Source: a virus. From it: 64,000 nucleotides of DNA. Position numbers and translations under genes: made by a program. Each line of letters starts with the position of its first letter. Positions within the stretch are counted from its first letter, which is position 1. Positions 20,685-56,567 of the stretch are shown here, one piece after another. The notes below the pieces were generated by a model. That model ran no database searches, was not told the origin of the DNA, and was given only the letters and a program-made list of their open reading frames with translations. Location: IMG/VR virus record IMGVR_UViG_3300031746_000001; one strand, written 5' to 3'.

Positions 20685-21965
20685 CTATGGCTTCGGGGGA
20701 CCGTATTGTGGACGGTTCTCCGCAGAGATTGACTCCATCCAGGATGGCCTTGAAAGGATATGAACCCGGCTCTTAAAACCGCTCTTGGCAAGAGTATGCT
20801 CAATATTCCAAACCTGCCAGATGCCCTTTGTCCCACCGATAAAGTTATTCCCGATCATTAACCCGACCTTATCCCCAACCTGAAGGTTGGGAAGGGTCGG
20901 AATGGTCACCTTGACATTAAAAACAAGCCCGGCCTCCCCAAATTTCTGTGCGTTCTCGTCGCTTATTTTAAGTCCTGCATTATTGCGAATCGGGGATCCA
21001 GAAACCCTTATCCGAGCCGCCCGAGCTGTCGCGGCGTCTTTTTTAGCTTGGAGTAAAGTTCCCATCTCCTCGGAAATGTCGCTCGGTCCTTTAAGCATCG
21101 CGAACGCCCGGGTGTGGAAGTTCCAGTTCGTCTCGGCCTCAAAGTCTTCAATCGGCAACACAGGAGGATCGGCCTGCAGATTAATCGGCCTTCCCCAAAC
21201 GAACTCAACTTCCGGCTTCGGGATGGATTGATCTTTTTTGGATGGACGGTTAATGATCCGAAGAACGGGATTATCATCCTCTTTTTCTCCGGGTGAAATA
21301 GTATAATCGAGAGTCGAAGCAAACGTCGTAAGGAAGTTATTCATTAACGACTTAATAGTAGTCGAACCCGCTGGATAATTTCTTGGACTGATGGTTATCG
21401 TATTCGACAGGATTCCACTGTCGGCGTCTCTAAATATCGCATCTACTTTGAACATCTCGGCGATCTCCATAATACAATCATCAATCCGCTTCTCTCCCTC
21501 AAGAACCAATCCCTCATCAAGCATAATACCATCCCCCATATAGGCGAACTTAAATCCGATGTCCGGATTCAATCCAAGACTTCCAGTGGGGTGAGTGGCA
21601 AAGGCCGTAAAAGGCTTCGTAGCGGCGTTCGGGCTCGTCCCCCGATAGCCGAAGCGGATTTTGATCCCAGTCATGTATTTCCACCACGTGTCATTGTCGG
21701 TCATGAACTTCTGGGTCGTTGCGATATCTGGTCGGAGGGAAATGGACCCATCAAATATCCCCCCATATAGGCCGTCCGAGAACCTATAATTTACACGAAT
21801 TTCATCGATGAACTTCCGGAATGAAGGAAAATCATCTTTTCCTACGTTCCACCGTTCCTCGTTTTTGAACCTCCGGGGAGAATCAACCGCCTCGTTGTTC
21901 CCGATCACGGGACGGAGGAAACTAACCTCCCAGAAAGGCGTAGTGAAGTCGTAGTCAATCTTCAT
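20685..21965 (-). CDS. Baseplate hub protein (gp27/gpD-like)
   Basis: Sits between the LysM-like and spike genes; IKIRFGY and C-terminal PNLQVGDKV...GIWQVWNIEHTL..SGFKS hub-type motifs. Confidence 0.65.
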   Translation of the reverse strand: MKIDYDFTTPFWEVSFLRPVIGNNEAVDSPRRFKNEERWNVGKDDFPSFRKFIDEIRVNYRFSDGLYGGIFDGSISLRPDIATTQKFMTDNDTWWKYMTGIKIRFGYRGTSPNAATKPFTAFATHPTGSLGLNPDIGFKFAYMGDGIMLDEGLVLEGEKRIDDCIMEIAEMFKVDAIFRDADSGILSNTITISPRNYPAGSTTIKSLMNNFLTTFASTLDYTISPGEKEDDNPVLRIINRPSKKDQSIPKPEVEFVWGRPINLQADPPVLPIEDFEAETNWNFHTRAFAMLKGPSDISEEMGTLLQAKKDAATARAARIRVSGSPIRNNAGLKISDENAQKFGEAGLVFNVKVTIPTLPNLQVGDKVGLMIGNNFIGGTKGIWQVWNIEHTLAKSGFKSRVHILSRPSWMESISAENRPQYGPPKP

Positions 21966-22249
21966 AATGCCCCGAACTTCTCAAAGGACGGGATCCGCAG
22001 AAGATCTCCTGGTTGCAAATCGGTCACCGGAAGCTGAATCCTGTTTAGCGATGCGATCACCCACCAGCCGTGGACGGTCCCGTAGGCCCGGCTTGCGATA
22101 TAGTCGAGCCGGTCTCCTCCGGTGAAGGCCAGGAAGAGATCGTCCGTATTCCCGGCCACGTCGACGAAGTCTGCATCCCAGAAGGCCACGCCCCCCTCCG
22201 TCATGTAGGTCGCCTTGTTAAGCCTGGATCCGAAGGGCATGGACTTCAT
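21962..22249 (-). CDS. LysM-like baseplate wedge protein (tail X / gp53-like)
   Basis: GDRLDYIASRAYG...WWVIASLN...DLQPGDLLRIP. Confidence 0.85.
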   Translation of the reverse strand: MKSMPFGSRLNKATYMTEGGVAFWDADFVDVAGNTDDLFLAFTGGDRLDYIASRAYGTVHGWWVIASLNRIQLPVTDLQPGDLLRIPSFEKFGAL

Positions 22250-23571
22250 GCTTCCTCCACGCTCCGCAGTAGATCGTCATCGAAATAGCCGAGCTTCTTG
22301 AGCCGCTCACCGGCGTAGGTCACCCGCATGCCGATATCGTTCCGGTAGTGGCCATCGTTCACCTTGACGTAATCGAAAGCATCGAGCGCATTTCGCCGGG
22401 CCACCGGAAGCCTCTCATCTACCCCGTTCGAGCAGAGAATCCGCCCCATGCCGGGAAGGACTTTGTAGATCCCGTCCTCGAGGACGAGTCCGAAGGGTTG
22501 TATGTCACACCCGTTCTCCTCGGCCTCCGGAATCCCGTTCACGACCTCCCAGTCGTATTGCTCGAAGCACTCATCGAAGGGATAAGACCCGATGTTGAGA
22601 GTCACCCCGACCGCCCAACCCCTCATGATCTGGGGGCTGATATCTTTCTCCCCGAAGGCGCACTTCATGAGCAGATCTCCGACCCCGTCCTTATGGAGGG
22701 CCATCTGGATGAGGAGCAGGGGATACCCGAACCGTGCCGTGAACTCTATCCCGAAAATCCCGTCCTCGTTCACGATCGCATTGATATCAAAGTAGCCCCG
22801 GAAGCGATCGCCCTCAGCTAGAATCCCCTCGAGCTTTGCCAGGGTCTCGTCGAAGAACTTACCGCCCATCACGTACCGGAGGCTGGTCCCCATCTCCCCC
22901 GTGAGGGCCCCCTGCCCTCCGGCCACGAGCCTCTTCTCCTCGAAGTTTAGGCAGAGAGGTTGGATGAACTTCTTGCCGTCGAAGAATCCCCCGATCGCCA
23001 TCTCCACACCTTCGATCTTCTCCTCGAGGATAAGCTCGGCCTTGTCCCCGGCCTTCTCCTTCACTTTTTCAAGGTAATCAAGCGTGTCCTGCGGTGCCCT
23101 CCCAACATACGTCCCCTTAGCCATCATCTCGGAAACCTTGACGCAGTAGCCCACTTTGCCGTTCTGGACGGTCTGGATGGCCTTTTTGACGTCCTGGAAG
23201 GCTTCTGAGTGGGGTGTCTGGATCCCTGCGTCCCGCATTACCTGCTTCCCGACCTTCCGGTCGAGTTCTAGCCGGGCGACCCCCGCCCCGGCCCCAAAGA
23301 CCTTGATCCCGTCTTCCCGGAGGCCGTCCACGTCCTGACCGAAGCCGACGTCCGTGGAAACCACGCAGTCTACCGACTTGGCGATGTCGAGAAAACCTTC
23401 CACCTTCTTGACCCCCCACTCTTCGAAGAGGCCCTTTCCGTAGGTCGTCTCGTAAATCTCCGGGTGAGCCCGGGCCCAGTTCACCCAGTAGAAGACCTTG
23501 TGGCCTTCATCCCGAAGCCTCCTGGCGAGCGCCATCGCCAGGGCCGTGTCCATGATCAGAAAGCTAGCCAT
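22246..23571 (-). CDS. PurD-like ATP-grasp ligase, paralogue A (441 aa)
   Basis: ARLELDRKVGK.VM..AGI.TP, LEEKIEGVE, NFEEKRL.AGGQGALTGEMG, FRGYFDIN, IEFTARFGYP, YRNDIG. Lacks the canonical PurD GxGGREHA and EFN.RFGDPE signatures. Confidence 0.8.
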   Translation of the reverse strand: MASFLIMDTALAMALARRLRDEGHKVFYWVNWARAHPEIYETTYGKGLFEEWGVKKVEGFLDIAKSVDCVVSTDVGFGQDVDGLREDGIKVFGAGAGVARLELDRKVGKQVMRDAGIQTPHSEAFQDVKKAIQTVQNGKVGYCVKVSEMMAKGTYVGRAPQDTLDYLEKVKEKAGDKAELILEEKIEGVEMAIGGFFDGKKFIQPLCLNFEEKRLVAGGQGALTGEMGTSLRYVMGGKFFDETLAKLEGILAEGDRFRGYFDINAIVNEDGIFGIEFTARFGYPLLLIQMALHKDGVGDLLMKCAFGEKDISPQIMRGWAVGVTLNIGSYPFDECFEQYDWEVVNGIPEAEENGCDIQPFGLVLEDGIYKVLPGMGRILCSNGVDERLPVARRNALDAFDYVKVNDGHYRNDIGMRVTYAGERLKKLGYFDDDLLRSVEEA

Positions 23572-24011
23572 CAGAAATCAAAAAGTTTTGTTATCTTCGA
23601 GTACAAGTTAACTATTTCAACGACAACAAGGTGAACCGTTCGAGAAACAATGGAAGCCACAGCGGAAACAGATACTGAGAGCACCTGAACGAATATCCGG
23701 GCGGTCCTCAAAACCGGAATGGCTACCTCCGAAACGCTCAGCTCCTTCGATATCAATCTTTGGATGCGAGATACCGATACGGAGATGGCCCCCAGGACTT
23801 TCTGCACGAACCGACTGAGGGTGGCCTGGACAGACGAAACAGCTAATAAAGACTTCCCGGTCATCCGCCTGATCGTAGTAATGGACGTCTCGACCACCAT
23901 CATGGACTTTAAAATCCCACGATGGATGGATGGAACACTCACCTCCGTGACGGCCAAAAGTTTCCGAATTACTTCCGGCCACCACATCATGTCTATGAGC
24001 GGATGGATCAT
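23571..24011 (-). CDS. Hypothetical Ser/Val-rich protein with short internal repeats
   Basis: Repeated K.L.V.EVS/TS units of about 17 aa; coupled to both neighbours. Confidence 0.55.
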   Translation of the reverse strand: MIHPLIDMMWWPEVIRKLLAVTEVSVPSIHRGILKSMMVVETSITTIRRMTGKSLLAVSSVQATLSRFVQKVLGAISVSVSRIQRLISKELSVSEVAIPVLRTARIFVQVLSVSVSAVASIVSRTVHLVVVEIVNLYSKITKLFDF

Positions 24012-24487
24012 CTAAACGTAACATACCTTATGAAATCCAAAAGCTTCTTTCCTACCCTTTCCCCGAACGTCCCGGGGGTCTGGTGGGACGAGACCATCTG
24101 GTCCCAGACCCCCGATGCAGTTATCGCTTCAACGACAGTAGCCTGAGAGGAAACCCGGAACACAGCCTCGACATTCCCACTATCCGGCAGAACCATTAGC
24201 GGGCTCTCATCGTCCGTGATTATCGTCCCCGTAATCAAGATCTGGTAGTTTCCAGACCAGGGCTTGATCTTCCATCCATCCGATGCGTTGATGATGAAGA
24301 TCGAGTCGGAATAGACCCCGCCTCCCATCCCAAACCTCCCCACCGCAGACATCGGAGGGCCAAAAACCAAGTTAGAGAGCTCATCCCCCCAATCCATCGC
24401 CTCGCTGTATATCTCGAGAGCCGAGATATTGGTCGTCGGCGACGTGATCTTAATCCACTTATTGTAAGGATCGAACTCGACACCCAC
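24008..24487 (-). CDS. Hypothetical structural protein
   Basis: 159 aa; IYS...DW, GWKIKPW, and a C-terminal VWD....H..PGTFG motif of the kind seen in phage fibre-associated proteins. Confidence 0.6.
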   Translation of the reverse strand: MGVEFDPYNKWIKITSPTTNISALEIYSEAMDWGDELSNLVFGPPMSAVGRFGMGGGVYSDSIFIINASDGWKIKPWSGNYQILITGTIITDDESPLMVLPDSGNVEAVFRVSSQATVVEAITASGVWDQMVSSHQTPGTFGERVGKKLLDFIRYVTFR

Positions 24488-24492
24488 AAGCC

Positions 24493-24681
24493 CTATCCCT
24501 TTCCGACCAGAGCCTTCTGCTCCTCTTCGTATTTCTCATGCTGAAGGATATAACCCTCCATGAGCTTCTTACGCTCCTCCTCCTGCACGATGGCCTTCCG
24601 GAAAGCCTCAATGTTCTTCTCGCATTGGGACACGGCTTTATACAGAGCAGACAACTCGTAGGTCGGTTTCTCTGTTGCCAT
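24493..24681 (-). CDS. Small coiled-coil protein (possible fibre chaperone)
   Basis: Start MATEKP (24681), immediately after the upstream stop; charged heptad-like sequence. Confidence 0.55.
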   Translation of the reverse strand: MATEKPTYELSALYKAVSQCEKNIEAFRKAIVQEEERKKLMEGYILQHEKYEEEQKALVGKG

Positions 24682-24682
24682 G

Positions 24683-27127
24683 TTAGGTGACAATCCCGTC
24701 CGGAGTCCTGATGGCCGTGGCGGCATATCCGGTTAACCCGATGGACCCTTTCGTCCGGAACGGGAGGATACTGTCCCCGGGCGGCGTTAGCCCGTCATAG
24801 CGCCTTACGACTGCCATCACAGTTCTCGCCGCCGTATACGTCACCTGAACCGTCACGGAAGTTCCAGCGGCCGCCTCGTCGATGTAAGGAACGTAAGCAG
24901 TGTCATCGGAGTCATACGCCTGAGTCGTTGACTCATCGAGAACAAAGGTGCTATACGTTGGCTGGTCAGTGTTGTTCCAGCTCGTGTAGTGATACCTTTG
25001 CTCCGCCGTAATCACCCCACCAGTCTTCTGACAGACCCGGATATACCCCTCCAACGGAGTGTCGTTCGGGATGGCCTCGACCACTCTTACATAGGTCTGA
25101 GCAGTGATCTGACCGTAGCAGGTGAACTGGCTCTTGTCGATGATGTAGTTGTCCCCGGTCGTCTCGAACACAGCGACCTTGTCTCCCGCAACAACAGAAC
25201 CAACAACGATGTTGACCATGTTCGGCGGGTTCCTTACTTCTCCATCGGCATCGGTCAGGGAGTAGTTCTTGATGTCCCCAGAGTCCATATCCTCGATCCA
25301 GACACCTCTCGCACCGAAGTAGACACCCCCAGCGAACGCACCGAGAGGAGAAGCCTTGACGGGCGAATAACCCGGGAACGTGATGACGTATTCTGCGCCA
25401 TCCTGGGGTGCCGAACACGAAGCCCCAGTCGTTGTCCCAGCTCCAGTTCCCGAAGTGATTGTGATGGCTTCGACCTGATCGAACAGGTCATCGGAGGCTG
25501 GAACCCCGGTGCAGGCGTCCATCTTGACGTACCACTTCCGGGTGCTGTTGTTGTAAGACAACAGCTTGCCGCTGTCGGTGGTGCTTCCACCTACGACTGC
25601 CTTTCCGACATCCGACTCCACGCAGGAGACATAGCCTCCAGCCGCAAATTCCAAGATGCGGATCGAACTGTTGTAGTTGTAGAGCGCAAAGGTCTGTGCT
25701 TCTCGAGTGATATACTTCAGGTAATTGTAGAAGTCGAGAAGCAGGTCGCCATTCAGATCGATCACCACGTTATACGGAAAGGCTGTCCCCAGAGGGTAAG
25801 CCTTGTTCACCGTCGTGACAGTCGGGTCCAGCGTTCCATTGGCATCCGCAGAACCCGTACCGGTGTCCGTGATGAGCTCGTTATCCTGGAACGTCCCGAT
25901 GACGTTTCCAAGAACAAGCGTTCCAGTCACCCCAGCATCCGTGATAGCCAGGATGACCCCGGTAGCCCCGGATGTCCCGCCAGTCACGGTCAGGCCAACG
26001 GCAAAGTTTCCAGTCTCTGCGTTGTAGTCCAGCTCTCCGGAGACCGTGTAGACCAGGATCTTCCCGGAGCCGCCGTAGCCAGCGACCACGTTGACGAAGG
26101 CGGTAGAAGCATCGTTTGTGGTCTGGTCGCCCGTGTCCCCCGACGCAAGACCATTGGTCGTCTCCTTCAGGGTCTCGGAAGTCTGGAACGTCCCCTTGAC
26201 CGTTCCGAGATAGAACCTATTCGGAGTATCGGCAGTGGCCATGAGCTCCCCGTAAGCTCCACTCGTCACGCCGCGAACGAAGTTCCCTACGACAAATCCT
26301 GTCGTAGCGGCGGGAATCAGGTAAAGCTCCGACTGCGTGAGCCCATCGTCGTTGTTAAGGTCGGTCGCCGTCGCCAAAGGCACGGCGTTACGACCACCAG
26401 CAGACAGGTCGATCTCGTAATGATCGAACAAGTCTCCATACTGGCGGTTGAAGACCGCGACAACCCCGCCGGCGATCTCCGACCCAGACTCCTTGACCTT
26501 GAGGAGCACGTCGATGTGTCCCCTCGGCCACCACCCCGCCAGGAGTTCGTCATACTGGTAGACGTAGATCAACGCATAGGGATTCGTTGCGATCGTTCCA
26601 AGCGTGTAGATGTTCGACCACAGGTCTTCCCCAGACGTGCTCGGCCCAATCGTAGTCCCTGCGCCTGTCCCAGGCCCGGTGATGCCCTCAGCAACATCGA
26701 ACAGGTCATCTGCGGCATCCATCCGGACCCACCACTCCCTCGTGGTGTTGTTGTAATCCACCAAGACACCAGTGTCCCCGGTGCTACCCCCAAGAACGAC
26801 ATCACCGATATCGCCAGCAACGCAGGGCGTGTAAGCCGTGGCGGACATCTTGAGAATCCGGACAGCCCCGCTATAACCATCCGTCGTGATGGCTCCAGTC
26901 TTGAGGAACTGGAAGGACGCATCGTCCATGAACCATCCATTGATGAGCTTATAGTCATAGGGCGTCTGGGCGGACATCGGCACATCGTCGTCCATCTGCG
27001 CCTGCTCATCGAACTCATCCATCAACCATGAGTAGAAGGCATTTGCAGTATAGACGGTCGAGCCAGAAAAGTGTCTAATTCTCTTCTGGGTATAGCTTTC
27101 GACATGGAAATCGTCGTAGATAGCCAT
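24683..27127 (-). CDS. Large structural (fibre/spike-like) protein with internal domain duplications
   Basis: 814 aa, acidic and Thr/Gly-rich; two copies each of two beta-rich modules (see findings). Confidence 0.65.
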   Translation of the reverse strand: MAIYDDFHVESYTQKRIRHFSGSTVYTANAFYSWLMDEFDEQAQMDDDVPMSAQTPYDYKLINGWFMDDASFQFLKTGAITTDGYSGAVRILKMSATAYTPCVAGDIGDVVLGGSTGDTGVLVDYNNTTREWWVRMDAADDLFDVAEGITGPGTGAGTTIGPSTSGEDLWSNIYTLGTIATNPYALIYVYQYDELLAGWWPRGHIDVLLKVKESGSEIAGGVVAVFNRQYGDLFDHYEIDLSAGGRNAVPLATATDLNNDDGLTQSELYLIPAATTGFVVGNFVRGVTSGAYGELMATADTPNRFYLGTVKGTFQTSETLKETTNGLASGDTGDQTTNDASTAFVNVVAGYGGSGKILVYTVSGELDYNAETGNFAVGLTVTGGTSGATGVILAITDAGVTGTLVLGNVIGTFQDNELITDTGTGSADANGTLDPTVTTVNKAYPLGTAFPYNVVIDLNGDLLLDFYNYLKYITREAQTFALYNYNSSIRILEFAAGGYVSCVESDVGKAVVGGSTTDSGKLLSYNNSTRKWYVKMDACTGVPASDDLFDQVEAITITSGTGAGTTTGASCSAPQDGAEYVITFPGYSPVKASPLGAFAGGVYFGARGVWIEDMDSGDIKNYSLTDADGEVRNPPNMVNIVVGSVVAGDKVAVFETTGDNYIIDKSQFTCYGQITAQTYVRVVEAIPNDTPLEGYIRVCQKTGGVITAEQRYHYTSWNNTDQPTYSTFVLDESTTQAYDSDDTAYVPYIDEAAAGTSVTVQVTYTAARTVMAVVRRYDGLTPPGDSILPFRTKGSIGLTGYAATAIRTPDGIVT

Positions 27128-27129
27128 CG

Positions 27130-27363
27130 CTACTTACTCCCTTTCTTCCTTTTGATTTCAAGCCTCTCCCTTGCCACCACAGACGGAGGCAGGTCCATCA
27201 CCTCCGGGCAAGACTTTCCGGTGAGAACTCCACCATACTTGATCCTCTCTTCATCGGAAAGCCATCCTTGCTTCCGAACGAGAAACCCCCTGTCCTCCTC
27301 GGAGAGCTCCTCCATCGGCTTGGCGAGGATGGACTTCATCCGTGAGATGTTTCCACTTGGCAT
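27130..27363 (-). CDS. Hypothetical small protein
   Basis: 77 aa, AAGGAG RBS; fills the gap between two larger genes. Confidence 0.55.
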   Translation of the reverse strand: MPSGNISRMKSILAKPMEELSEEDRGFLVRKQGWLSDEERIKYGGVLTGKSCPEVMDLPPSVVARERLEIKRKKGSK

Positions 27364-27384
27364 TTCTTCTCCTTTAAGTTAACT

Positions 27385-28950
27385 TTACACTGAATAGTTC
27401 GGATCTACCTGCCAAACAGCCGTGACATCCAGACCAGTAGAAGGTATCGTCACAGTCGTTTCAAACGGCAGATAACCCTTTTCTCGTGCTTTTACCTTCA
27501 CAGCTATTCCTGTCACCGTATACGATACCGATGCCTTATAATATCCGGGGTTCTGGTCATCGGCTGTTGACGCATTAGCATTCATAAGTTCGGTCCCATC
27601 AGACACCTTGTAAATAGCACATCTGACATATTCCGAAGGCTCACTTCCGGTTTTCACATGCCGGACAACCAACGTAACGGATGTCTGAAAGGTAATCGTA
27701 TCCCCGGCAGGGTCGTATGACGAGGGTGCTGGACTACAGTATTGGTCATAGTTGACAGTAATCGCACTTCCATAGTTACTATATCCATCATAAGTGTTCC
27801 CCAGGAAATCCAAATTACTGAACGTGAATGGCCCAGCAACCGTAATATGAATCGCCCTCGGACATGAGATGAACGAGCAATCCGTAATATTATGCGAAGT
27901 GCTACTCATCCGAATCGCAGAAGACGTCGAACTGATAAAATTGCAGTTCTTGACCACTCCGGTGGAGGGTATCATCTCCGCACCGGCAATGAAGTTCGAG
28001 TTCAAAAACTCCTGGTTGGCGTTATAAGCTTGCCCCTCAATGGTGTCCGCATAAACAAAGGTGCATCCATAAAATCCGAACTTCGTTATATTCGTATCGG
28101 TCATTGTCAGCTTCCACTTTGAAGTAGACGGAGCACGAACAAAGCAACCACCAATCCCCGCCGTCCCAGACTTAGACCCGAAGTATATTTCTGTCGCTCC
28201 CGTTCCGTTCCCTTGCCCTTTTATCTCGTAAAAGCCAGTCGGGTTGCCCTTCATTGATTTGAATTGAACTACCTGATTTGAGCCCTTAAAATATGTAGCG
28301 GAAGTTCCACTTCCATCCCCCATGCGGAGTATCCCCTGAACAAAGTAGGCTCCATTATACTTTTCAACCACTCCATAGGCGAAGGTAGCCTCTGCTGTAA
28401 CAAAGTCCTCAAATGTCGCCGGAGCCCCGGAAGTTCCGGCCTTGATGTCCAAGCCGTATCCGTACCTCACAGCATCCCAGTAAATATAAACCTTTGCAGA
28501 GACTGTATCGCATCGCCAGTCCACATATCGCACAGCAGTCAAAATCAATGTTCCACTCGTCGTGTCGGGTGTCACGCTCGTATGCAGAGCCCACGGTATC
28601 CATCCCCCATGCGGTAGCGTGGATGCCGTGAACATATTCCACTCGCTATAATTTCCGGAAGTATCGGTCAACCTAATCCTCATCGGGTTTGCTCCATAAT
28701 TTTTCTTACTGAAAGCAAACCAAAAAAGAACCATCTTTCCGGACAGGCTTGTTCCGCCTGCACCCAAATCCCAGCGTGCTCCTCTGTTAGCAGAGGATGC
28801 CTTATAATCCCCAAGGCAATAAGTTCCTTCTATAGCATCAAAGACTGATGTATCATTTTGAGCCTGTGTGCCAGTCCCAACATTAGTCCAACCCGTAGTG
28901 GACTCACACATACTGATGTCGGTCATATTTGCAGTTACTGTTCCAGCCAT
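27385..28950 (-). CDS. Tailspike-like protein (carbohydrate-binding-like N-terminus, beta-helix-like middle)
   Basis: N-terminal CESTTGW...W...WD jelly-roll-like region; repeated GCTF/NSNF/NCNF/DCSF/NLDF rungs; C-terminal KAREKGYLPF Ig-like end. Confidence 0.6.
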   Translation of the reverse strand: MAGTVTANMTDISMCESTTGWTNVGTGTQAQNDTSVFDAIEGTYCLGDYKASSANRGARWDLGAGGTSLSGKMVLFWFAFSKKNYGANPMRIRLTDTSGNYSEWNMFTASTLPHGGWIPWALHTSVTPDTTSGTLILTAVRYVDWRCDTVSAKVYIYWDAVRYGYGLDIKAGTSGAPATFEDFVTAEATFAYGVVEKYNGAYFVQGILRMGDGSGTSATYFKGSNQVVQFKSMKGNPTGFYEIKGQGNGTGATEIYFGSKSGTAGIGGCFVRAPSTSKWKLTMTDTNITKFGFYGCTFVYADTIEGQAYNANQEFLNSNFIAGAEMIPSTGVVKNCNFISSTSSAIRMSSTSHNITDCSFISCPRAIHITVAGPFTFSNLDFLGNTYDGYSNYGSAITVNYDQYCSPAPSSYDPAGDTITFQTSVTLVVRHVKTGSEPSEYVRCAIYKVSDGTELMNANASTADDQNPGYYKASVSYTVTGIAVKVKAREKGYLPFETTVTIPSTGLDVTAVWQVDPNYSV

Positions 28951-28953
28951 AAC

Positions 28954-29301
28954 TTATGAATACACCACTGTGGTTGCTCTGTCGTCCCAGACGTTATCAA
29001 AGTTCTCGTTCCCATCAGCCCAAAGCACCGTAGTCACCGCCCCGGAGACAATCATCTTTCTAAGCCTCCAAGATGACGCACTTCCAGCCGTCCCGGTAGG
29101 AGCCTCGCCGATATAGGTCACGTCACTACTGGCTTCATCAACCCTCATCGCAAGACCTGCGTAGGGATCAAGACCATTCGGGCGGACTCCGATGATAAAT
29201 TGCTCGTGAACCTCGTTCCCGGAGACGTCCCGAACATTCGTCCGGGTTTTCTTCCCCGCCCCATCGGTAGGAACCTGTATGAATCCGGGGCCTTCAGCCA
29301 T
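28954..29301 (-). CDS. Hypothetical phage protein
   Basis: Start MAEGPG (29301) overlaps the upstream stop (TGATG); TYIGEA..G.......WR...WADG...FD.VWDDR motif. Confidence 0.6.
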   Translation of the reverse strand: MAEGPGFIQVPTDGAGKKTRTNVRDVSGNEVHEQFIIGVRPNGLDPYAGLAMRVDEASSDVTYIGEAPTGTAGSASSWRLRKMIVSGAVTTVLWADGNENFDNVWDDRATTVVYS

Positions 29302-29660
29302 CAGGTAATCTCCAAATCGATCGTGAACTCCATTCGGTCCCCCAAAGATAATGGAACCCCAGTAAAGTCTCCATGAACGACTAGCGTCCCTCCTGCGGCA
29401 AGAGTGAAGTTCCCCGCATTCGTAATCGTCTTTGGGGCATCGGCCTGTAGTATTCCAACCCACCGAATCTTGTTGGTCGCAGGCTGGGACCGGGAAGCCA
29501 CGACCCTAGCCTCGCTCGCTTCGACAAAGAGAGCAAGATCGTTCTTATCCGCCGTCCCAGGACCGGTTCCCCAAGCGATGTATTCAGCCGTGGTCTGAAC
29601 TACTTCGTCCAGCTTATCGACAATCCAATTCTCGCCGACATGCGTCAGAACGGTAGCCAT
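29301..29660 (-). CDS. Tail-collar / fibre-attachment-like protein (second copy)
   Basis: YIAWGTG....D.AL..E...ITNAGNF.....G....HGDF....L..GD..EFT; resembles 10326..10811. Confidence 0.6.
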   Translation of the reverse strand: MATVLTHVGENWIVDKLDEVVQTTAEYIAWGTGPGTADKNDLALFVEASEARVVASRSQPATNKIRWVGILQADAPKTITNAGNFTLAAGGTLVVHGDFTGVPLSLGDRMEFTIDLEIT

Positions 29661-29667
29661 AATTCCT

Positions 29668-29826
29668 CTACTTAGAGATTATCCCTAAATCTTCCCACTT
29701 TCCAGTGGAAGCACGATAGACCCTAGCTCTTATCACAGGCTTCTTGACCTTAGCCTTGGCACTTACCGAAAACCTAGGCTTAGATAACAGAAACCGTAAA
29801 AACCTGAAGAATAGCCTCTTCACCAT
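29668..29826 (-). CDS. Small basic protein (52 aa), missed by the ORF track
   Basis: Read by hand: MVKRLFFRFLRFLLSKPRFSVSAKAKVKKPVIRARVYRASTGKWEDLGIISK. Fills an otherwise empty gap and ends at the RBS of the next gene. Confidence 0.5.
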   Translation of the reverse strand: MVKRLFFRFLRFLLSKPRFSVSAKAKVKKPVIRARVYRASTGKWEDLGIISK

Positions 29827-30076
29827 AAGCAATCCTATCGTCGGAAAACTTCACGTAAGCCTGCACGACATAATTTCCGAACTCATTCAAATAAGTGGCA
29901 GAGGTTACATCGTAGTAGATAATCCCAGTGACCGGATCTTCCACAGTAGCAGTCTCGGTAACCCGAGATCCGTTCGGCCTCTTAATCACGATCTTTACCT
30001 CCTTCGCCCCGGCGAGACTAACTCCCGTCGTCACCCGAATCCTGAGAGCCGTCTGTCCCACATATACCTTACCCAT
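29780..30076 (-). CDS. Ig-like (BppU N-terminal-like) structural protein
   Basis: SLAGA..VKIVIKRPNG...GIIYY......LNEFGNYVVQAYVKF. Confidence 0.6.
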   Translation of the reverse strand: MGKVYVGQTALRIRVTTGVSLAGAKEVKIVIKRPNGSRVTETATVEDPVTGIIYYDVTSATYLNEFGNYVVQAYVKFSDDRIAYGEEAILQVFTVSVI

Positions 30077-30239
30077 CGTAGGGAATCCTCGAAGTTAAAA
30101 GAATTTGGCTTGAAATTGTTCCATCAAAGGCAAACCGGATTATTATCATCCCGTCAGAGTCGAAAAGATTAACGATCCCGGAACTCCCATCGAAAACCCG
30201 GTTTACGGACGAGGAAAGGGTCACTACATCTTCAAGCAT
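30069..30239 (-). CDS. Hypothetical small protein
   Basis: Start moved to MLEDVV (30239), just after the ATP-grasp stop; 56 aa. Confidence 0.4.
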   Translation of the reverse strand: MLEDVVTLSSSVNRVFDGSSGIVNLFDSDGMIIIRFAFDGTISSQILLTSRIPYDG

Positions 30240-30244
30240 TGGTC

Positions 30245-32635
30245 TTAGCGGAAGCTCTTCGCCCAGTCCTTGTCGACGTAACCCCACTCGAGAAGCTTCT
30301 GCCCCTCGGCGATCGTGCGGGCTCCGATATCGTAGCGGTAGAAGCCGTCCGGGATCCATATCTTCCGGGCGCTGTCGTTCATGTCCTGCATGGCCTGGGA
30401 GATCGTCTGCCCCTGTCCCGTGATGCAGACCGTCCGGCCATAGTCCGGGAGGGCGATATACTTACCATCCTCCTTGACCACCCCGAAGAAGCCGACCCGG
30501 GCCCCTTCCTCAATCGCCTTGTCTATGCCGTAGACGATCGACCAGTCACCGCCCCGGGCCTTCATGACCTCCGTGTAGGGGTAGCCGTTCACGCACCAGC
30601 ACGTCCCGATCGCCCAGCGGTGCTTCAAGATATCCCACTTCGGCCTGTACCGTGGATCCAGAAGGGTCCCGTAGGCGATCCCCGAGAGCACCTCCCCGAA
30701 GCGTTTGTGGAGCGTCATCTGAATCATGTAGACCGGATAGCCGAATCTGCAATTGCCAGAGAAAAACGCCTTCCCGTTTCTTCTCACCAGCATTGCGTGA
30801 TAATCCTCCACCTCTACATCCCAAACCTTACCTGTATAGTGCTCTCGACCCATCACGCGCTTGTCCACAGAATAATCAAGTTTCTTCTCTCGAACGCTCA
30901 GAGAATAACCATCACTCCTTCGAGTATAGCCGCCAATGCCTACCGTTCCCTTAACCTTGCAAGGCTTGATATTTGCCACTCGACCCGTCTTAAATAGCAC
31001 CTCCTGGAAATCATCCGCCAGAAGTTTTGAAGTCGTATAGAGACTCAGTTGGCCATTCCTCTTATGCCAGCATCCATCGCCAAGGGCAAAGCCATGAACC
31101 AGGGCTTCTAAAAGCCGAGGTGAAAAGTTCTTAAAAGCTAAGGGGATCGTCTTAAATGAAGCTGTCTTATCTAACCCGAGGGATTCGAGAAAACCACATA
31201 GTTGCCGAGAATTGATTTGATAATGACCGCCATTCTTCTGGACCGAAAAATCAAATCCAAAGTTCTTCAATATCTCCTCGATCTCGCCCCTCCTCTTGGA
31301 ACCCCAGCTTTGGGATATGGTCAGGTGATATTTCTTCCCGTTCTTTCTCCGTCCCCCAAAACATCCCTCCGACAGATACAATCCCAAAAACTGCATAAAG
31401 ACATGGGTATCAAGCTTCCGGGCTGGATGAACGAGGTATATCTTTTTCTTGGACTTTCCAAGACAATGTTCTTCAATATACTCGGGAATTTCAATATACC
31501 TTTTGTCAGTCCCAAACCACGACCCGCTCCGGACTATAGACCAATTCCACTCCGGCATCTCCCCAGCCTTGACAATCTTATTCTTCCCGCTCTTGGTAAT
31601 CAATAAATTATGGTCAGGAGTGACCAGAATATCCAAAGCCTTGTTCCCGATCCTTACCATCTCGCCATCATAGTCCCGCACCCGCTTACCCACAATTTTC
31701 TTCCACTCTATCTCCCGGCTTTGGGGATTGATAGCTAAGGCCATATCTCCAACCACAACCTCCGTATACTTCAGCCAGCCCCGTTGGGTCAGGATTTCGG
31801 TCTTCTCGTCGAAACAGGTGAACTCAATGACGTGCGTCCCGCTCTCGTTGGCGATGCAGGAGACCTCCACGTAGCCCCGGTAGCCGACCATCCGCAGGAA
31901 GGGCTCAATCTTCTGTAGGGTCTCCGCAAACGCCTTCCCTCCGGTGTCATCGTAATACATTGCCGTTCCGATCTCCGAGTTCATCGGCCCGAGATCCCCG
32001 GGGAAGGTCTTGTTATACTCAAAAGAGATCAGCTTGGGCCCCAGGAACTCCTGCCCGTTGAAAAACCCTCCGCAGGCGATCTCCACGCCCTCAATGAACT
32101 TCTCGAGCCGGATCGGAGCGGAGGAGGACAGGCCGGACAGAAACTTGATCATGGCCTCCGGAGATTTGGTCACGAAGGTCTTTTTGTTGCGGGACTCGTC
32201 CGACTTGTAGGCGTAGCCGGAAGGGTTCTGTTTGATATGCTGAACGGCGTCCTCTTTGGTGTTATGAACCGTGACCTCCGGGACCTTCACCCCGTAACCT
32301 GCCAGGGTCTCTCTGCCGAACTCCCGGTCCGTCTCGAGCCTCTCCCCGAGGAACGGGGCCCCGTAGACCAGAGTCCCCTTCTTCCGGAAGTAGTCGAGAT
32401 GCTTCCCGTAGCCGATATCCGTCGCCACGACGTAGTCGACGTAGCTTAGGATGGAATCATACATGTCGATCCGCTTGACCCCCCACTCTTCAAAGAGGCC
32501 TTTGCCGTAAAGGGCTTCGGACTCGTCCGGGTAGTTCCTGATCTTGTTGAGGTAATAGTAGACCTCATCTCCCTCCTGCGCCAGTCTCCTGGCTAGATCA
32601 AGGGCAAGACCAGTGTCGAGAATCAAGACCCTCAT
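30245..32635 (-). CDS. PurD-like ATP-grasp ligase, paralogue B, containing an intein (441 aa after splicing)
   Basis: Colinear with 22246..23571 (both have YGKGLFEEWGVK, IEGVE, GGFF.G, RGY, EFT.RFGYP, YR.DIG.R); 355-aa insertion between IEFT and CRFGYP. Confidence 0.85.
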   Translation of the reverse strand: MRVLILDTGLALDLARRLAQEGDEVYYYLNKIRNYPDESEALYGKGLFEEWGVKRIDMYDSILSYVDYVVATDIGYGKHLDYFRKKGTLVYGAPFLGERLETDREFGRETLAGYGVKVPEVTVHNTKEDAVQHIKQNPSGYAYKSDESRNKKTFVTKSPEAMIKFLSGLSSSAPIRLEKFIEGVEIACGGFFNGQEFLGPKLISFEYNKTFPGDLGPMNSEIGTAMYYDDTGGKAFAETLQKIEPFLRMVGYRGYVEVSCIANESGTHVIEFTCFDEKTEILTQRGWLKYTEVVVGDMALAINPQSREIEWKKIVGKRVRDYDGEMVRIGNKALDILVTPDHNLLITKSGKNKIVKAGEMPEWNWSIVRSGSWFGTDKRYIEIPEYIEEHCLGKSKKKIYLVHPARKLDTHVFMQFLGLYLSEGCFGGRRKNGKKYHLTISQSWGSKRRGEIEEILKNFGFDFSVQKNGGHYQINSRQLCGFLESLGLDKTASFKTIPLAFKNFSPRLLEALVHGFALGDGCWHKRNGQLSLYTTSKLLADDFQEVLFKTGRVANIKPCKVKGTVGIGGYTRRSDGYSLSVREKKLDYSVDKRVMGREHYTGKVWDVEVEDYHAMLVRRNGKAFFSGNCRFGYPVYMIQMTLHKRFGEVLSGIAYGTLLDPRYRPKWDILKHRWAIGTCWCVNGYPYTEVMKARGGDWSIVYGIDKAIEEGARVGFFGVVKEDGKYIALPDYGRTVCITGQGQTISQAMQDMNDSARKIWIPDGFYRYDIGARTIAEGQKLLEWGYVDKDWAKSFR
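30752..31816 (-). mobile_element. Intein with LAGLIDADG homing endonuclease
   Basis: Begins CFDEKTEILTQRGW; block B VTPDHNL; LAGLIDADG-like FLGLYLSEG and HGFALGDG; ends VWDVEV...FFSGN followed by +1 Cys. DNA is more AT-rich than its flanks. Confidence 0.93.
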
Positions 32636-32734: not shown

Positions 32735-35700
32735 TTATCCACGAGTCGACACTCCTTCCCGAATCTCAGCCTCGACCTTCTCTCGGATGTTTCCCCATAC
32801 GACCTCACCGATCTTCTTACCGTCCATAAAGACATCCCCCTTGAGGCGCCGTAGGGCATCCACGATCGACCCGAGGACGCCTTCGACTTTTCCCCCAATT
32901 CCCGCCGTGATCCCTCCCCCTCCACCTGTGTATTTGATCTCCGGGGATTCATATTCGGAAAGGCCCCCGGCCTCAGTCAGTCCAACATCCCCTCCTGTCA
33001 TCAAAGAAGCTCCCTCCACCGCCGTAGTCGGAGTCGTAATAGGAACCTTTCCGTAAGACATAATGTCCTCGCCGGGAGCAACGGCGGAAACGTAATCAAC
33101 CGTCTCCTTCGGTGGAATTGGAAACGCGCCTCTAAACTTCCTTCCCGCAAGGAAGGCATCTAGTTTTCCCTCTCCCCAATTGTAAGCGGCGGCAATCAAG
33201 GCTTCATTACCGTTGTATTTTTTGTAGAGCTGATCCACAAGTCCGGCCCCAAGAGCCGTAGAAACTTTAGGGCGGGTTTTAAGGTACTCAGTCGCTTGAG
33301 CCAACTTTTGGATTATCTCTTCTTTGCCGAGCTTCTTCAAAGAAACCCCTTGCATTCCAAGAGCCACAGAAGGCAGAATCTGAGATGGACCAATCGCCCT
33401 CTCCTTAAAGTCATGCTTCCCTATCCGGGTTGTAACCTCCCTCGTACCAAGAATATTCTGTCCTCGGGATTCCCTCTGGACGATCTTTTGAAAGAGGGCT
33501 TCCTGTGGGGTTGCTCCCGGCTTGGTCATGTCTCCCCAATCCTTATAAATACCCTCACCGCCCGTCTCTTCGTAAGCCGTAAGATGCGGAGCCCGCTCTT
33601 TGAACCAGGCAACAAGGGCATCGAGGTATTGCTTCACCGGGCCAAACACCTTATCCCAGATTCCCTTGATCCACCCCAGGTTCTGTTCGATCCACTTCAT
33701 CGGGACCCGAATGATATCCTTGATCCACTCCATCGCATCTTTGGCCACCTTCTCAATCGGGCCACCTATCCATGCCAAAACCTTCGCCCCGAATCCTCCG
33801 AAAGCCTTTCCAACGGCAAACTCCCATCCCCAAACAGCCTTGTCGAGTGACCAGAGATTCTGAACAGCCCATCCGATTGCTCCCCCGATTCCCTTCAGGA
33901 TGGTCCAGACGACCTTCAGCGGCCTGGCTACGTTGACGTCCCAACCGAACTTTACAATTCTCGCCCCGATGGTTACGACGGTCTTGAGTATCTTCCCCAC
34001 CTGCCCCATGAGGTTAGAGAAGAACTTCGGAAGGAACTTGAGGAGAAAATCATCACCCAGGAATCGACGGATGTAGCCCCAGATATCGATATACTTGTAA
34101 AGACCGAAAGTGAGATCGTTCAAGACCTGAGATACTGTGTCAGCATAGGCTACTCCGGTCTTCCAACCCTTCTCCCAGATCGTCCCGCCCTCTTTCCAGA
34201 TACCGACGAATCTCGGGATCCCACGCCCGAGGAAATCCACGGCCGCGATGATCGCAGTGAGAACGACGGATATCTTACCGACGACCCCTAGGAATCCACC
34301 GAATCCACCTGCTCCTCTAGCTACTCCCAGACCAGCCCTTCCAGCTCCTGCCGCCTTGGCCGCTCCTGCTCCCGCCCTTCCAGCCCCGAGGCTAGCCTTC
34401 GTCATGCCCATTATTCCACCGGAAACATCAACCCCTCTCCCAGCTCCGGCAAGCCCAGCACCAGCCCCCAGACCTCGTGCTCCAGCCCCCGCTCCCTTCC
34501 CCATCCCAAGTAGACCCTTGAGCCATCCGAGCGGCTGGATCCCTCCCAGCTTCCCGGCCACTCCTCCGAAGAGCCCGACTCCCCGACCCATTCCCCCGAC
34601 GCCCGTCAGTAACCCAGCGATAATCGCCCCGGGGATCCCGAGGGTCGGGATAAGCCCGGCGAAACCCCCGCCACGCCTGCCCCCGGCGAACTCCATCATC
34701 TGCTTGCCGACGACGTATTTTGAAATCCACTCCATAATCTTCTTGTGAGAGGCCGCCCAACCCGTCGTCTTCCGGGCGATCTTGTCCTGAGCATCGGCAT
34801 ACTTGTTGAGCTGTTTCACATACTCCCCGACGAAAAGGGACCCTTCCTGGAAGAGCTTTATCTGCTCTGCCATTCTCGCTTTATTCTCTGCCCGGGTCGC
34901 GGTGGCCATGACGTCCTCAATGGACTTCCCCATCTCCCCGAAGTTCGCCGTCTGCGACTTGGCGGCATTCCCCATCTCCTTCTGCATCTTGTCGCCCAGG
35001 CGGACCACGGAATTAGCCACGTCCTCCCCGAAGGCATCCTCCACGGTAAACCGGAACCTCTCGACCGCAGACTTATCCCCTTCGATCGTTTTGTAGAAAC
35101 CCTGCAGTCGCTTAATGACGTTGCTCGTGTCCTGATCCATGAGCAGGGAAAAGGCGAAGTCGGCGTCCCCCACACCCCGGGAGAGCTCCGTCACCTGATC
35201 CATGACGTTATCGATGTCCCCGCCGAGGCCGAGACGAAACTTCTCCATCTCCTTCCGGCGATCCGCAGTTTTCTTGACCATGTTCTCCACGGCCCGGGAT
35301 GCGGCATCGATCCCTCCCTTGAGCACCTTGGACATGGCCGCAGTCGCCCGCATCATGCTCTTCACCATGCTCATGGACTTCTCGGGAGCCAGACCGAAGG
35401 TCATCGATATGTCCCTGGTCGTGTCCGACAGCTCCATCATCTGCTTTAGGAAATCCTTCGGAAGCCCCATCTTCTTGGTCATGGACGCCGACGTATCCAG
35501 AAGGTCGGTCATGTCCCTCTGCGTCATCCCAATGACCTCCGACGTCCCGACCCAGTTTGCATACGTCGACGGAGGAATATCAAAGGCTTCCTTCAGTCCC
35601 ACCGCCCGCTTCATCTCCCGGACTGCCTCATCGGACGTCAGGTTATCACGGAGATCTTCCCACGCCCCACTGGCCTCCCGAATGCTGATCCCCGTCCGTC

Positions 35701-36199
35701 GCATCTGCGTAACAATGGACCCGGCCATTCTTGAGACTGACTTCTCGGATATTCCCGCCGTCTCCTTGAAGCTCGAACTCCACTCCACGTTCTTGTCGAT
35801 CATGTCACCGAAGTCCCCGGCGAGACCAGTAAAAATACTGCCCCCGGCTCTACCCAAACCTTTGAGCTTTTCCCCGATGTCCTTGATATCGAAGCCGAGG
35901 AACCCGTATTTATCCCCACCACGACCGCCACGCCCCCCGTAGCGGCCACCGCCCATGCCCTCCCGGGAACTCTTCCCAGCATCCCTCCACGATCTGCCAA
36001 TATCCCGAGAGCTCCTATGAACGGCGTCGGCCATCTTCCGGGCGCCCATGACCGTCCGGTCGGCAACGTCGTCGGCTGTGTCCCCAAGACCTCGGAAGCT
36101 CTTCTTGGTGCCCTCGAGCTCACTGCGAGTGTCCTTTAGGAACTTGCCCGTCCCCCGATCGACAATTCCGAGACCAACTAGGAAATTCCAGGTGGGCAT
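32735..36199 (-). CDS. Tail tape measure protein with C-terminal lytic transglycosylase domain
   Basis: 1154 aa, helical and Gly/Ala-rich, with Trp-periodic repeats; follows the chaperone genes; SLT motifs IVQRESRG, AIGPSQILP, YNGNEALIAAAYNWGEG, ETVDYV. Confidence 0.9.
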   Translation of the reverse strand: MPTWNFLVGLGIVDRGTGKFLKDTRSELEGTKKSFRGLGDTADDVADRTVMGARKMADAVHRSSRDIGRSWRDAGKSSREGMGGGRYGGRGGRGGDKYGFLGFDIKDIGEKLKGLGRAGGSIFTGLAGDFGDMIDKNVEWSSSFKETAGISEKSVSRMAGSIVTQMRRTGISIREASGAWEDLRDNLTSDEAVREMKRAVGLKEAFDIPPSTYANWVGTSEVIGMTQRDMTDLLDTSASMTKKMGLPKDFLKQMMELSDTTRDISMTFGLAPEKSMSMVKSMMRATAAMSKVLKGGIDAASRAVENMVKKTADRRKEMEKFRLGLGGDIDNVMDQVTELSRGVGDADFAFSLLMDQDTSNVIKRLQGFYKTIEGDKSAVERFRFTVEDAFGEDVANSVVRLGDKMQKEMGNAAKSQTANFGEMGKSIEDVMATATRAENKARMAEQIKLFQEGSLFVGEYVKQLNKYADAQDKIARKTTGWAASHKKIMEWISKYVVGKQMMEFAGGRRGGGFAGLIPTLGIPGAIIAGLLTGVGGMGRGVGLFGGVAGKLGGIQPLGWLKGLLGMGKGAGAGARGLGAGAGLAGAGRGVDVSGGIMGMTKASLGAGRAGAGAAKAAGAGRAGLGVARGAGGFGGFLGVVGKISVVLTAIIAAVDFLGRGIPRFVGIWKEGGTIWEKGWKTGVAYADTVSQVLNDLTFGLYKYIDIWGYIRRFLGDDFLLKFLPKFFSNLMGQVGKILKTVVTIGARIVKFGWDVNVARPLKVVWTILKGIGGAIGWAVQNLWSLDKAVWGWEFAVGKAFGGFGAKVLAWIGGPIEKVAKDAMEWIKDIIRVPMKWIEQNLGWIKGIWDKVFGPVKQYLDALVAWFKERAPHLTAYEETGGEGIYKDWGDMTKPGATPQEALFQKIVQRESRGQNILGTREVTTRIGKHDFKERAIGPSQILPSVALGMQGVSLKKLGKEEIIQKLAQATEYLKTRPKVSTALGAGLVDQLYKKYNGNEALIAAAYNWGEGKLDAFLAGRKFRGAFPIPPKETVDYVSAVAPGEDIMSYGKVPITTPTTAVEGASLMTGGDVGLTEAGGLSEYESPEIKYTGGGGGITAGIGGKVEGVLGSIVDALRRLKGDVFMDGKKIGEVVWGNIREKVEAEIREGVSTRG

Positions 36200-37164: not shown

Positions 37165-37569
37165 TCATACCACCAGCGTCTTGTCCCCGTTCTCGCTAGA
37201 AACGATCCTACGAACGTCTTCCAGAAACGCATTCGGTTTGAACGCCGGAGTCCCCTTCGTGATGAACTTCCGAATGCCCATTAAAAGGCTTCGCTTCTCG
37301 GGCTTGAGATCGGCCTCCTTTAAGGCCGTCAGAACAATCACCGGCACGTTTCTCATCTCATCGTCCCGCTTCATCTGCTCGAACACTGTGAACCCGTCCA
37401 TATCCGGCATCATAAGGTCCAAAACTACGAGCTGTGGTTTGATCTCCCTGATCTTCTGCAATCCCGACACCCCTCCATCCGCCAGAGCTACAGTATACCC
37501 GTTATGCTCGAGGAGGTCTTTCAGCATCTCCCTAACGAACATGTTGTCGTCCACGATTAGGATACTCAT
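37165..37569 (-). CDS. Single-domain response regulator (CheY-like receiver)
   Basis: ILIVDD, LVVLDLMMPDMDGF (phosphoacceptor Asp), VPVIVLTA and FITK are all present; no output domain. Confidence 0.92.
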   Translation of the reverse strand: MSILIVDDNMFVREMLKDLLEHNGYTVALADGGVSGLQKIREIKPQLVVLDLMMPDMDGFTVFEQMKRDDEMRNVPVIVLTALKEADLKPEKRSLLMGIRKFITKGTPAFKPNAFLEDVRRIVSSENGDKTLVV

Positions 37570-39727: not shown

Positions 39728-39769
39728 CTATTGGGCCTTCGTCGTCTTCTGCATGAACTGGAACACGAC
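39728..39769 (-). pseudogene. Displaced duplicate of the tail sheath 3' end (VVFQFMQKTTKAQ-stop)
   Basis: Encodes the same 13 residues plus stop as 40563..40604, but 12 of 14 codons differ synonymously. Confidence 0.9.
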
Positions 39770-40560
39770 TACGCGGCCCACTTGTAGCCGTAAAAAGGTT
39801 GAATCTCATTTGGACAACAACCAATGTAAGACAGGAAACTATTCGTCGAAGAATCTGAAATTCCTATCACATTGTTTGACTTCTGCCGAGAAGCTTTAAA
39901 TCCTAAATTATGGATTTTCCTAACGAGCAACTCGACATCATCAACAGAAAAACCCTGCGTAGACAATAGTATTTTGCGACGGCGTCCTCCTGGACGGTGA
40001 AGCAAGTATCCGTCTCCGATATACCACTGTCTTACAACCAGAGGTTTTAAGTCGACATCCAAAGGAACGATCTTTCTTCCGTTGTCGTAAAACATTTTGT
40101 GCAATGAGAGTAGCTCGGGATACCTCAGAGATGCATAGTGATGAACTACACTTATGGCTCCACTTTTCCAGACCGTTCTGGTCTTTTGTATTTTCCCAGA
40201 TCGATACAGTCCGAAGCCTCTGAAGGTCTTGTCCAACCATTGGATATACCCCAGGTGCTTAGAACCACTCTGAAATCTTGCCGATCTCTCATTATCGGAG
40301 TGAAGATGCCCATCTCCCAGAAGCTCTCCGACCAAAAATTGAATCGCTTCTTCCGAGAGGCTAACGTGTTTCTCTCTTGTAAGATAGATAGCGTCCGCAC
40401 ACGACCTTCTTGGGATGCCAAACTTCACCATCCACATTTGAATGGCGTTGCTGGTCACCCCAAGATCGACCGCGATTTGATGGAGAGACTTCCTGCCCGA
40501 TACGTATTGGCTCCGAAGCCAATCTTCAGTCATCCATTTATAGAGCGGACGCCGATCCAT
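39769..40560 (-). mobile_element. Free-standing LAGLIDADG homing endonuclease with N-terminal HTH
   Basis: SLHQIAVDLGVTSNAIQMWM (HTH), FLVGELLGDGHL and RQWYIGDGY motifs, GRKIVP, LSTQGF; AT-rich relative to the sheath gene. Confidence 0.9.
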
Positions 40561-44483: not shown

Positions 44484-44795
44484 CTACCACTGATCGGTGA
44501 TATCGGTAAGGGCGACGATCATAACGCTGGCTCTCCGGACGGCGTCCCGGAAGTTATTCGCTATCCGGGTTACCCGCTTGACATCCACAAGGCCCCGGCC
44601 TTTCACCTGTTCGTTGTAGAGATCATTGGCGAGCTTCTTGATCTCGTCCGTGATCTTCACGAGCTTCGAGACATTCTCTGCAATCTCGGCCTGTAGCTCT
44701 TCGGGATCCCTGCTCCGGAGCCCCGCTTCCCCGGGAGAGACGGCAGACTTCAAGGTCTCCTCTGTCAATGCGACCGACTTAAGCAGGTCGTTCAT
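44484..44795 (-). CDS. Leader-bearing small protein
   Basis: True start MNDLLKSVALT at 44795 (ATGA overlap, GAGGTG RBS); coiled coil. Confidence 0.7.
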   Translation of the reverse strand: MNDLLKSVALTEETLKSAVSPGEAGLRSRDPEELQAEIAENVSKLVKITDEIKKLANDLYNEQVKGRGLVDVKRVTRIANNFRDAVRRASVMIVALTDITDQW

Positions 44796-45112
44796 TTGGT
44801 CACCTCGTTGAAAATGTCCATGAGGCCCTTCACCTGCCCGGCAAGGGTGATCCCGGACTTCATGCCCTTCCGGTGAAGCCGAGACTCCTTCTCCTTGCGG
44901 GACCTCGAGCGCATGGTGAGGCCGAGGTCGGACTTCACGACCCTCCGGGTAGCCCTGCGGGCGTCCCTGCTGAACGGGGACACAACCCTTCCTGACTGCA
45001 CCGCGACCTTCCGGTAAGGGACCCGCTTCCACTGCTTGAGATGGGTCTTCTCTCCGGAGACGACCGCAGACGTCAACGCCTGCACTCCACTCAACAAGAC
45101 TTTCATGCTCAT
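44792..45112 (-). CDS. Leader-bearing small basic protein
   Basis: MSMKVLLSGVQAL...; very Arg/Lys-rich. Confidence 0.65.
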   Translation of the reverse strand: MSMKVLLSGVQALTSAVVSGEKTHLKQWKRVPYRKVAVQSGRVVSPFSRDARRATRRVVKSDLGLTMRSRSRKEKESRLHRKGMKSGITLAGQVKGLMDIFNEVTK

Positions 45113-46684: not shown

Positions 46685-46711
46685 GAAGAAGACCCCCCGC
46701 CCCAAAACTGT

Positions 46712-47056: not shown

Positions 47057-47080
47057 TTCATCCTCCTTTTGGTTAAGTGA

Positions 47081-47794: not shown

Positions 47795-47815
47795 CTCTGC
47801 TGGCGCCAGCGGAGG

Positions 47816-48472: not shown

Positions 48473-48475
48473 CCC

Positions 48476-48793: not shown

Positions 48794-48801
48794 AAGTCCT
48801 C

Positions 48802-49077: not shown

Positions 49078-49086
49078 AGCACCCTC

Positions 49087-49494: not shown

Positions 49495-49497
49495 GGT

Positions 49498-49938: not shown

Positions 49939-49939
49939 G

Positions 49940-51085: not shown

Positions 51086-51094
51086 GATATCCTC

Positions 51095-52092: not shown

Positions 52093-52093
52093 G

Positions 52094-52591: not shown

Positions 52592-52598
52592 GGTCATC

Positions 52599-53902: not shown

Positions 53903-53909
53903 GATCCTC

Positions 53910-55715: not shown

Positions 55716-55716
55716 C

Positions 55717-56566: not shown

Positions 56567-56567
56567 C

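Follow-up and report, generated by a model that had tools for sequence, protein, structure and literature searches.

Two PurD-Like ATP-Grasp Ligases in the Late Region of a T4-Like Myophage and Their Possible Role in Early Infection

Introduction

Several lines of work have connected ATP-grasp enzymes and delivered proteins to phages. In virome studies, purD/GART is counted among the purine auxiliary genes that are enriched in viruses (PMC11360552, PMC11097641, PMC12043954). Phage ATP-grasp peptide ligases of the R2K/CDC123 group are predicted to add aminoacyl groups to proteins (PMC7824862). In addition, proteins inserted in the portal-MuF architecture have been interpreted as delivered effectors (PMC5512222). 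Here, we describe two ATP-grasp ligases with similarity to PurD, called A and B, in a stretch of viral DNA of 64,000 nucleotides (IMG/VR record IMGVR_UViG_3300031746_000001; the whole stretch is referred to as the window). The window stems from a T4-like myophage and forms its late region, which encodes a Gp23 capsid, an S77 protease, a sheath, two tubes, a tape measure, a baseplate and a collagen fibre. Its sequence is present in sediment metagenomes, and no RNA data set is listed among its occurrences. A sister phage (L001/G001) with a complete genome of 160 kb carries both ligases and was used as a whole-genome stand-in for the window phage. In a literature search that did not cover the 2009 amidoligase survey, no work on a PurD-like or GARS-like family in phages or virions was found. 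Judged by their sequences, A and B would represent a variant of ATP-grasp ligase for which no description was found in the literature.

The Two Ligase Genes

Ligase A (22246..23571, minus strand) is a protein of 441 amino acids (aa) with a GARS_A match (E 1e-16) and an active site near the family consensus. Ligase B (30245..32635, minus strand) is made as a precursor of 796 aa, which is reduced to 441 aa by the removal of a LAGLIDADG intein of 355 aa (30752..31816, minus strand) that interrupts its active-site motif between EFT and CRFG. The intein corresponds to residues 274-628, starts with Cys and ends with Gly-Asn before a +1 Cys, and matches both Hint and LAGLIDADG endonuclease domains. 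The B protein of the sister phage is intein-free, 441 aa long and 94% identical, and reads EFT-N-RFGYP at the empty site; the intein boundaries are thus fixed independently. The B intein is 45-53% identical to inteins that occupy this position in archaeal and other members of the family, and two additional intein sites, both in the active-site loop, are used within the family. The DNA identity to the sister phage is 95% just 3' of the intein (30249-30745) vs. 86% before it, which fits a homing co-conversion tract or recent recombination.

Open reading frames and alignment agree with an earlier note on this DNA, made from the sequence alone, which had described both genes at these coordinates with products of equal length after intein removal. 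A and spliced B align over 442 columns with 38% identity (E 1e-101). All motifs quoted in that note for the two proteins were found, and the GxGGRE loop of PurD is missing in both. The translational coupling of A to its neighbors was also seen, as an overlap of 1 nucleotide with the upstream gene and of 4 nucleotides with a LysM-like baseplate gene (21962..22249, minus strand; phrog_7145, E 3e-9), which overlaps the stop of A. Between the window phage and the sister phage the ligases are 92-94% identical, and the ratio of nonsynonymous to synonymous substitution rates (dN/dS) is 0.10 for A and for B, the same as for the baseplate genes. The GC content at third codon positions (GC3) of the ligases (0.79-0.83) is similar to that of the sheath gene, and that of the genes enclosed between them is 0.39-0.69. 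Purifying selection together with a sheath-like GC3 indicates that both A and B are long-resident and maintained.

Relation to PurD

The overall structure of A is that of PurD. Its AlphaFold2 model (predicted local distance difference test, pLDDT, 91) shows the four-domain PurD fold, and its top 15 PDB matches are all PurD with template modeling (TM) scores of 0.69-0.76; compared with solved PurD (PDB 2QK4, 2YW2, 1GSO), the TM score is 0.75 at 20-23% identity. The ATP-grasp fold and the metal-binding Glu are found in both ligases, as are the ATP-grasp residues R105, K145, E190, E276 and R280. K213 is present in A and is Asn in B. At the level of profiles, TIGR00877 gives 122 bits (A) and 67 bits vs. 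a cut-off of 288, and the GARS_N domain has no match in A or B among Pfam profiles.

The substrate residues of PurD, taken from published work (PMC2978367; PMC8449271), were mapped onto Salmonella PurD and 253 family members. Residues that contact ATP or the acyl phosphate are retained (E102, K145, E194, E286 and R290 in Salmonella numbering). The loop that binds phosphoribosylamine through R11/E12 (human R13, E14) is deleted in A, in B and in 99%/92% of the 253 members. In the glycine site, Y271 has changed to D and D293 to Y/W, and E295 is lost. Of the human glycine ligands D217, Y274, R292, D295 and E297, the Arg alone is retained; the others have changed from D to E, Y to D/E, D to Y and E to L/V, respectively. 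In two trees, in which the PurD side consists of 5-6 true PurD rows, a long branch with a support of 100 separates the family from PurD. The ligases do not nest inside true PurD, in keeping with what the earlier note had anticipated. The tree places A with single-copy relatives, and a clade of A and B is not rejected (approximately unbiased test, p-AU 0.215). On the evidence of these sequences, A and B are members of a large sister family of PurD and are not PurD. At 50% identity, 2343 clusters score E < 1e-30, with true PurD counted in.

Predicted Dimer and Substrate Pocket

The predicted complex of A and B from the sister phage scored 0.90, compared with 0.00 for the best of three controls. 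At least 93% of the contacts agree between runs, and the partner pLDDT is at least 87. Among reference pairs, 51 of 78 solved complexes and 2 of 108 mismatched pairs attained the mark of this test, which is also passed when a true partner is exchanged for one of its close relatives. The modeled interface is pseudo-symmetric: in each chain, the 215-223 loop is placed against the partner's 405-412 motif. Of the approximately 31 interface columns, 27 are common to both chains. PurD of E. coli is monomeric and the fungal GARs domain largely so (approximately 20% dimer in Cryptococcus neoformans; PMC8449271), and the score is thus not obviously explained by recall of a dimer among solved PurD structures. 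It is therefore plausible that A and B form a pseudo-symmetric dimer. Of the suggestion in the earlier note that they work as a heterodimer, the dimer is plausible, and the model does not favor a heterodimer over a homodimer.

The two proteins also differ in the substrate pocket, as had been noticed before. At 18 key columns, 231 of the 253 family members deviate at none or one; A deviates at none and B at four. The changes present in B and not in A affect near-invariant pocket residues (K213N, G225S, D262E and N264S in A numbering). K213 corresponds to the lysine that has been placed at the Mg/ATP site and D262 to the residue that faces the glycine ammonium, so B may have been retuned to a different donor, or may be weakened and reliant on A.

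Genomic Context of the Family

The family is represented by 249 viral loci and at least 597 cellular matches. Gene order was surveyed in 80 viral loci, which are the best-scoring of the 249 and were chosen by one motif, not at random. In 60 of these (21 of 30 clusters at 60% identity), the ligase gene is the immediate downstream neighbor of the final large gene in an ejection block of the P22/T7 type; these blocks were called from PHROG matches of cluster representatives and from P22/T7-like gene order, not by naming every gene. In all members of the present myophage lineage the ligase follows the tape measure. The window encodes a tape measure protein with an SLT domain (32735..36199, minus strand), the conserved upstream neighbor of the first ligase of the lineage, and L002, L003 and L188 have a homologous tape measure directly upstream of the ligase. 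In L056 the order is portal-MuF, ligase, prohead protease and capsid, and in P0178 the ligase is fused between portal and MuF. In the T4-like locus L044, several consecutive genes with internal-protein leaders of the T4 type precede the ligase. The expectation that ligases of this kind are tied to virion modules in other phages was supported in many of them, and the ligase tracks genes of ejected or internal proteins rather than an enclosed cassette. In INPHARED, the matches were mostly true purD, with one uncultured family member; two Aquificae-virus proteins were very divergent and were not counted as members. Separately, the product of L044:3309-4088 is presumably PmoC-like, and the presence of such a gene in the T4-like ligase loci suggests methanotroph hosts.

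Cellular members occur in DPANN archaea, Nitrososphaerales, Candidate Phyla Radiation (CPR) bacteria and Bacteroidota, with no fixed operon. Their commonest co-oriented neighbors are GNAT (5 of 61) and SET (2 of 61, plus one SET fusion). The large number of cellular matches and the lack of a fixed operon point to a substrate of a generic cellular kind, with a protein or peptide amine as the probable acceptor. Among family members, P0157 has a fused SET domain (Pfam, E 1e-4) and P0102 a fused HAD-like tail (recognized by motif only). A search for longer fused forms gave none, which is weak evidence.

A possible packaging signal was found elsewhere in the window. Between the capsid and the neck (44484-57489, minus strand), fourteen small genes with acidic products carry an amphipathic leader, MxxLLxAVxxL. 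By a motif defined after those genes had been seen, this N-terminal leader is present in 14 of 28 small genes behind the capsid gene (58506-59951) and in none of 41 others. The N-termini of the capsid and the protease resemble it, and it is a candidate capsid-cargo signal. A different helix, DLxxLG, starts both the gene before the protease (61571-62293) and the large gene after the single ligase of L002/L003 (L002:11537-15199); the ligases P0002 and P0003 have an acidic C-terminal tail with a similar ExDLxxL helix. Although the motif is short, a role of this helix in prohead docking is possible.

Proposed Role and Alternatives

What do these ligases do? We tentatively propose, with a probability of roughly 0.4, that the family comprises dimeric, ATP-dependent amide ligases that are made late, packaged with the ejected proteins and active on a host amine after injection. 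By analogy with ATP-grasp chemistry, the enzyme would phosphorylate a carboxylate, probably of an amino acid other than glycine, in a donor pocket formed by the acidic residues E211/E226/D262 and by R280. The acyl group would then be joined to an amine other than phosphoribosylamine, most likely that of a protein or peptide. The family is predicted to act as a two-fold dimer. In this phage the dimer could be A:B, in which A would be the standard subunit and B a retuned or weakened partner. The genomic context suggests that the enzyme is expressed late, loaded into the virion with ejected or internal proteins, and active on a host target just after injection.

Several observations weigh against this proposal. 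The main objection is that A and B do not carry the head-region leader, and T4-like members likewise do not have the internal-protein leader of their own phages. In 19 of the 80 loci, a sample whose choice by motif itself calls for caution, the ligase lies elsewhere, in some cases among non-structural genes. The portal-ligase-MuF fusion is known from one protein, no GNAT turned up in the genome of the sister phage, and a late-operon position could reflect timing only. Two homodimers fit the complex test equally well as the A:B heterodimer. The more specific version, in which an enzyme and a retuned or pseudo-enzyme partner form a heterodimer that is packaged, injected and tags a host protein or signal molecule with an amino acid early in infection, is regarded as unlikely.

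The alternative that survives best, though still improbable in our view, is that the ligase works in the cytoplasm late in infection and tags or cross-links tape measure, ejection or portal proteins during assembly, either ahead of packaging or in the course of it, without being injected. The same gene-order evidence fits this, as do the missing packaging leader and a dN/dS equal to that of baseplate genes, and GNAT lies at the opposite end of many ejection blocks. The proteins next to the ligase (tape measure, gp16-like and portal-MuF) are, however, unrelated to each other, cellular members have no adjacent phage genes, and cultured phages with such architectures yielded no close member.

A little more doubtful is a late-expressed enzyme that acts on a host metabolite or the envelope, for example by conjugating a polyamine or peptide, with the position reflecting late expression only. 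Stand-alone cellular homologs exist, some T4-like members lie among non-structural genes, and one cellular member (L189:2547-5218), which shares K213N and G225S with B, lies behind S-adenosylmethionine decarboxylase and an EamA transporter. This link to polyamines was seen at one locus only and did not recur, and such an enzyme would leave unexplained both the portal-MuF fusion and the exact slot after the last ejection gene.

The Cassette between the Ligases

The earlier note had also proposed that the ligases serve the genes that they enclose. Exactly eleven genes, close to its estimate, lie between B and A (23571..30239, minus strand), between the tape measure and the LysM/hub/spike genes. 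From B to A they encode 56, 98, 52, 119, 115, 521, 77, 814, 62, 159 and 146 aa. These genes are swappable, and their products are putatively structural. The 521-aa protein (27385..28950, minus strand) has a beta-helix match below the cut-off (PF13229, E 2.7e-4) and a poor single-sequence fold (pLDDT 36). The 814-aa protein (24683..27127, minus strand) has no Pfam match and belongs to a large unnamed family of at least 565 homologs, which includes CPR bacterial genomes and loci without a ligase. At the edge, a 98-aa protein (29780..30076, minus strand; 48% identical in the sister phage) resembles BppU_N below the cut-off (E 4e-4), and a match to the Gp80 fibre is also below it (E 0.06). The cassette does look structural. 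The signs that it encodes fibres are sub-threshold, the 814-aa protein has no named family, and the clear collagen-repeat fibre of the window (2067 aa; 1112-7315, minus strand; C-terminal domain like 3-keto-disaccharide hydrolase) lies outside the cassette.

Modification or cross-linking of the enclosed fibre-like proteins or their glycans by the two ligases in two steps is now considered quite improbable. Both two-copy phages do have a cassette between the copies, with homologous edge genes, and the sister cassette core encodes a collagen fibre, a putative transferase, a radical SAM-methyltransferase and an NAD epimerase. Yet DNA identity between the two phages ends at 30249 (the stop of B) and restarts at 23562 (the start of A), and the cassette cores are unrelated, with homology confined to the small edge genes (32-48%), while the flanking ligases are conserved. 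No recognizable sugar enzymes were found in the window cassette by domain profile search. In another phage, L187, the 115-521-77-814-62-159 block is present at 57-92% identity (92% for the 521-aa protein) and is followed by a glucosaminidase, not by A; the upstream end of this block is missing, so it speaks on A and not on B. Conversely, three more distant myophages have a tape measure, one ligase, one large unrelated gene and LysM at this locus, with no cassette. A ligase occurs without the cassette and the cassette core without A, and the sequence comparison shows the cassette to be a passenger that is not tied to the ligases. We infer that the conserved ligase genes act as homology anchors for the exchange of appendage cassettes by recombination. 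A 36-aa open reading frame that bridges the tape measure and B was considered as a substrate peptide and was ruled out because it is broken in the sister phage.

Finally, that A and B are true PurD and purine auxiliary genes is very hard to maintain: the best structural and sequence matches and the database label (phosphoribosylamine-glycine ligase) point to PurD, but the TIGR00877 score, the missing GARS_N, the lost substrate residues and both trees do not, no other purine gene appears in the Pfam annotation that covers most of the window, and purF, purM and purN are all missing from the complete sister genome although the substrate phosphoribosylamine has a half-life of 5 s.

Other Features of the Window

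A stand-alone response regulator receiver gene (37165-37569, minus strand) is located between the gene for the tape measure chaperone and those for the tubes, and L187 also has such a gene near the shared cassette block. Two mobile elements coincide with gaps that are missing from the sister alignment: a LAGLIDADG gene between sheath and tube (39769-40560, minus strand) and an intein with HNH in a leader-bearing gene of the head region (49940-51085, minus strand). Counts of promoters and terminators were no different from those in shuffled sequences.

Comparison with Known Systems

Members of this family are labeled purD in databases and are probably not purine enzymes; the virome studies cited above were compared by label, not by sequence. 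A family annotated as purD in viromes would, if the more specific version with an injected heterodimer is true, be a widespread new class of early effector, and injection of A:B would be the first delivery of an ATP-grasp amide ligase by virions. The natural pair, with one consensus pocket and one retuned pocket, and the predicted dimer offer a direct biochemical handle on the substrate.

PurD (glycinamide ribonucleotide synthetase, EC 6.3.4.13) shares with A and B the whole four-domain fold, the ATP-binding residues, the catalytic Arg (R290) and a C-terminal YRxDIG motif. In contrast to PurD, A and B have neither the Arg-Glu loop nor the GLAAGK loop, do not have the glycine ligands Y271, D293 and E295, and read ExT instead of ExN. 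The family further differs from PurD in its virion-gene context, its frequent inteins and its predicted dimer. The R2K/CDC123 ligases are likewise ATP-grasp enzymes found in phages. They form a different clade that is sporadic in jumbo phages and not reported with virion modules, and a domain profile search gave no R2K match for A or B. Unlike the MuF/Alt effectors, A and B are stand-alone proteins encoded next to tape measure and baseplate genes with no visible packaging leader, and no PurD-like domain is among the effectors catalogued in PMC5512222. Any likeness to T4 Alt and the polyvalent proteins (PMC5512222) would lie in location: one family member sits between portal and MuF, and others are encoded beside the genes of ejected or internal proteins.

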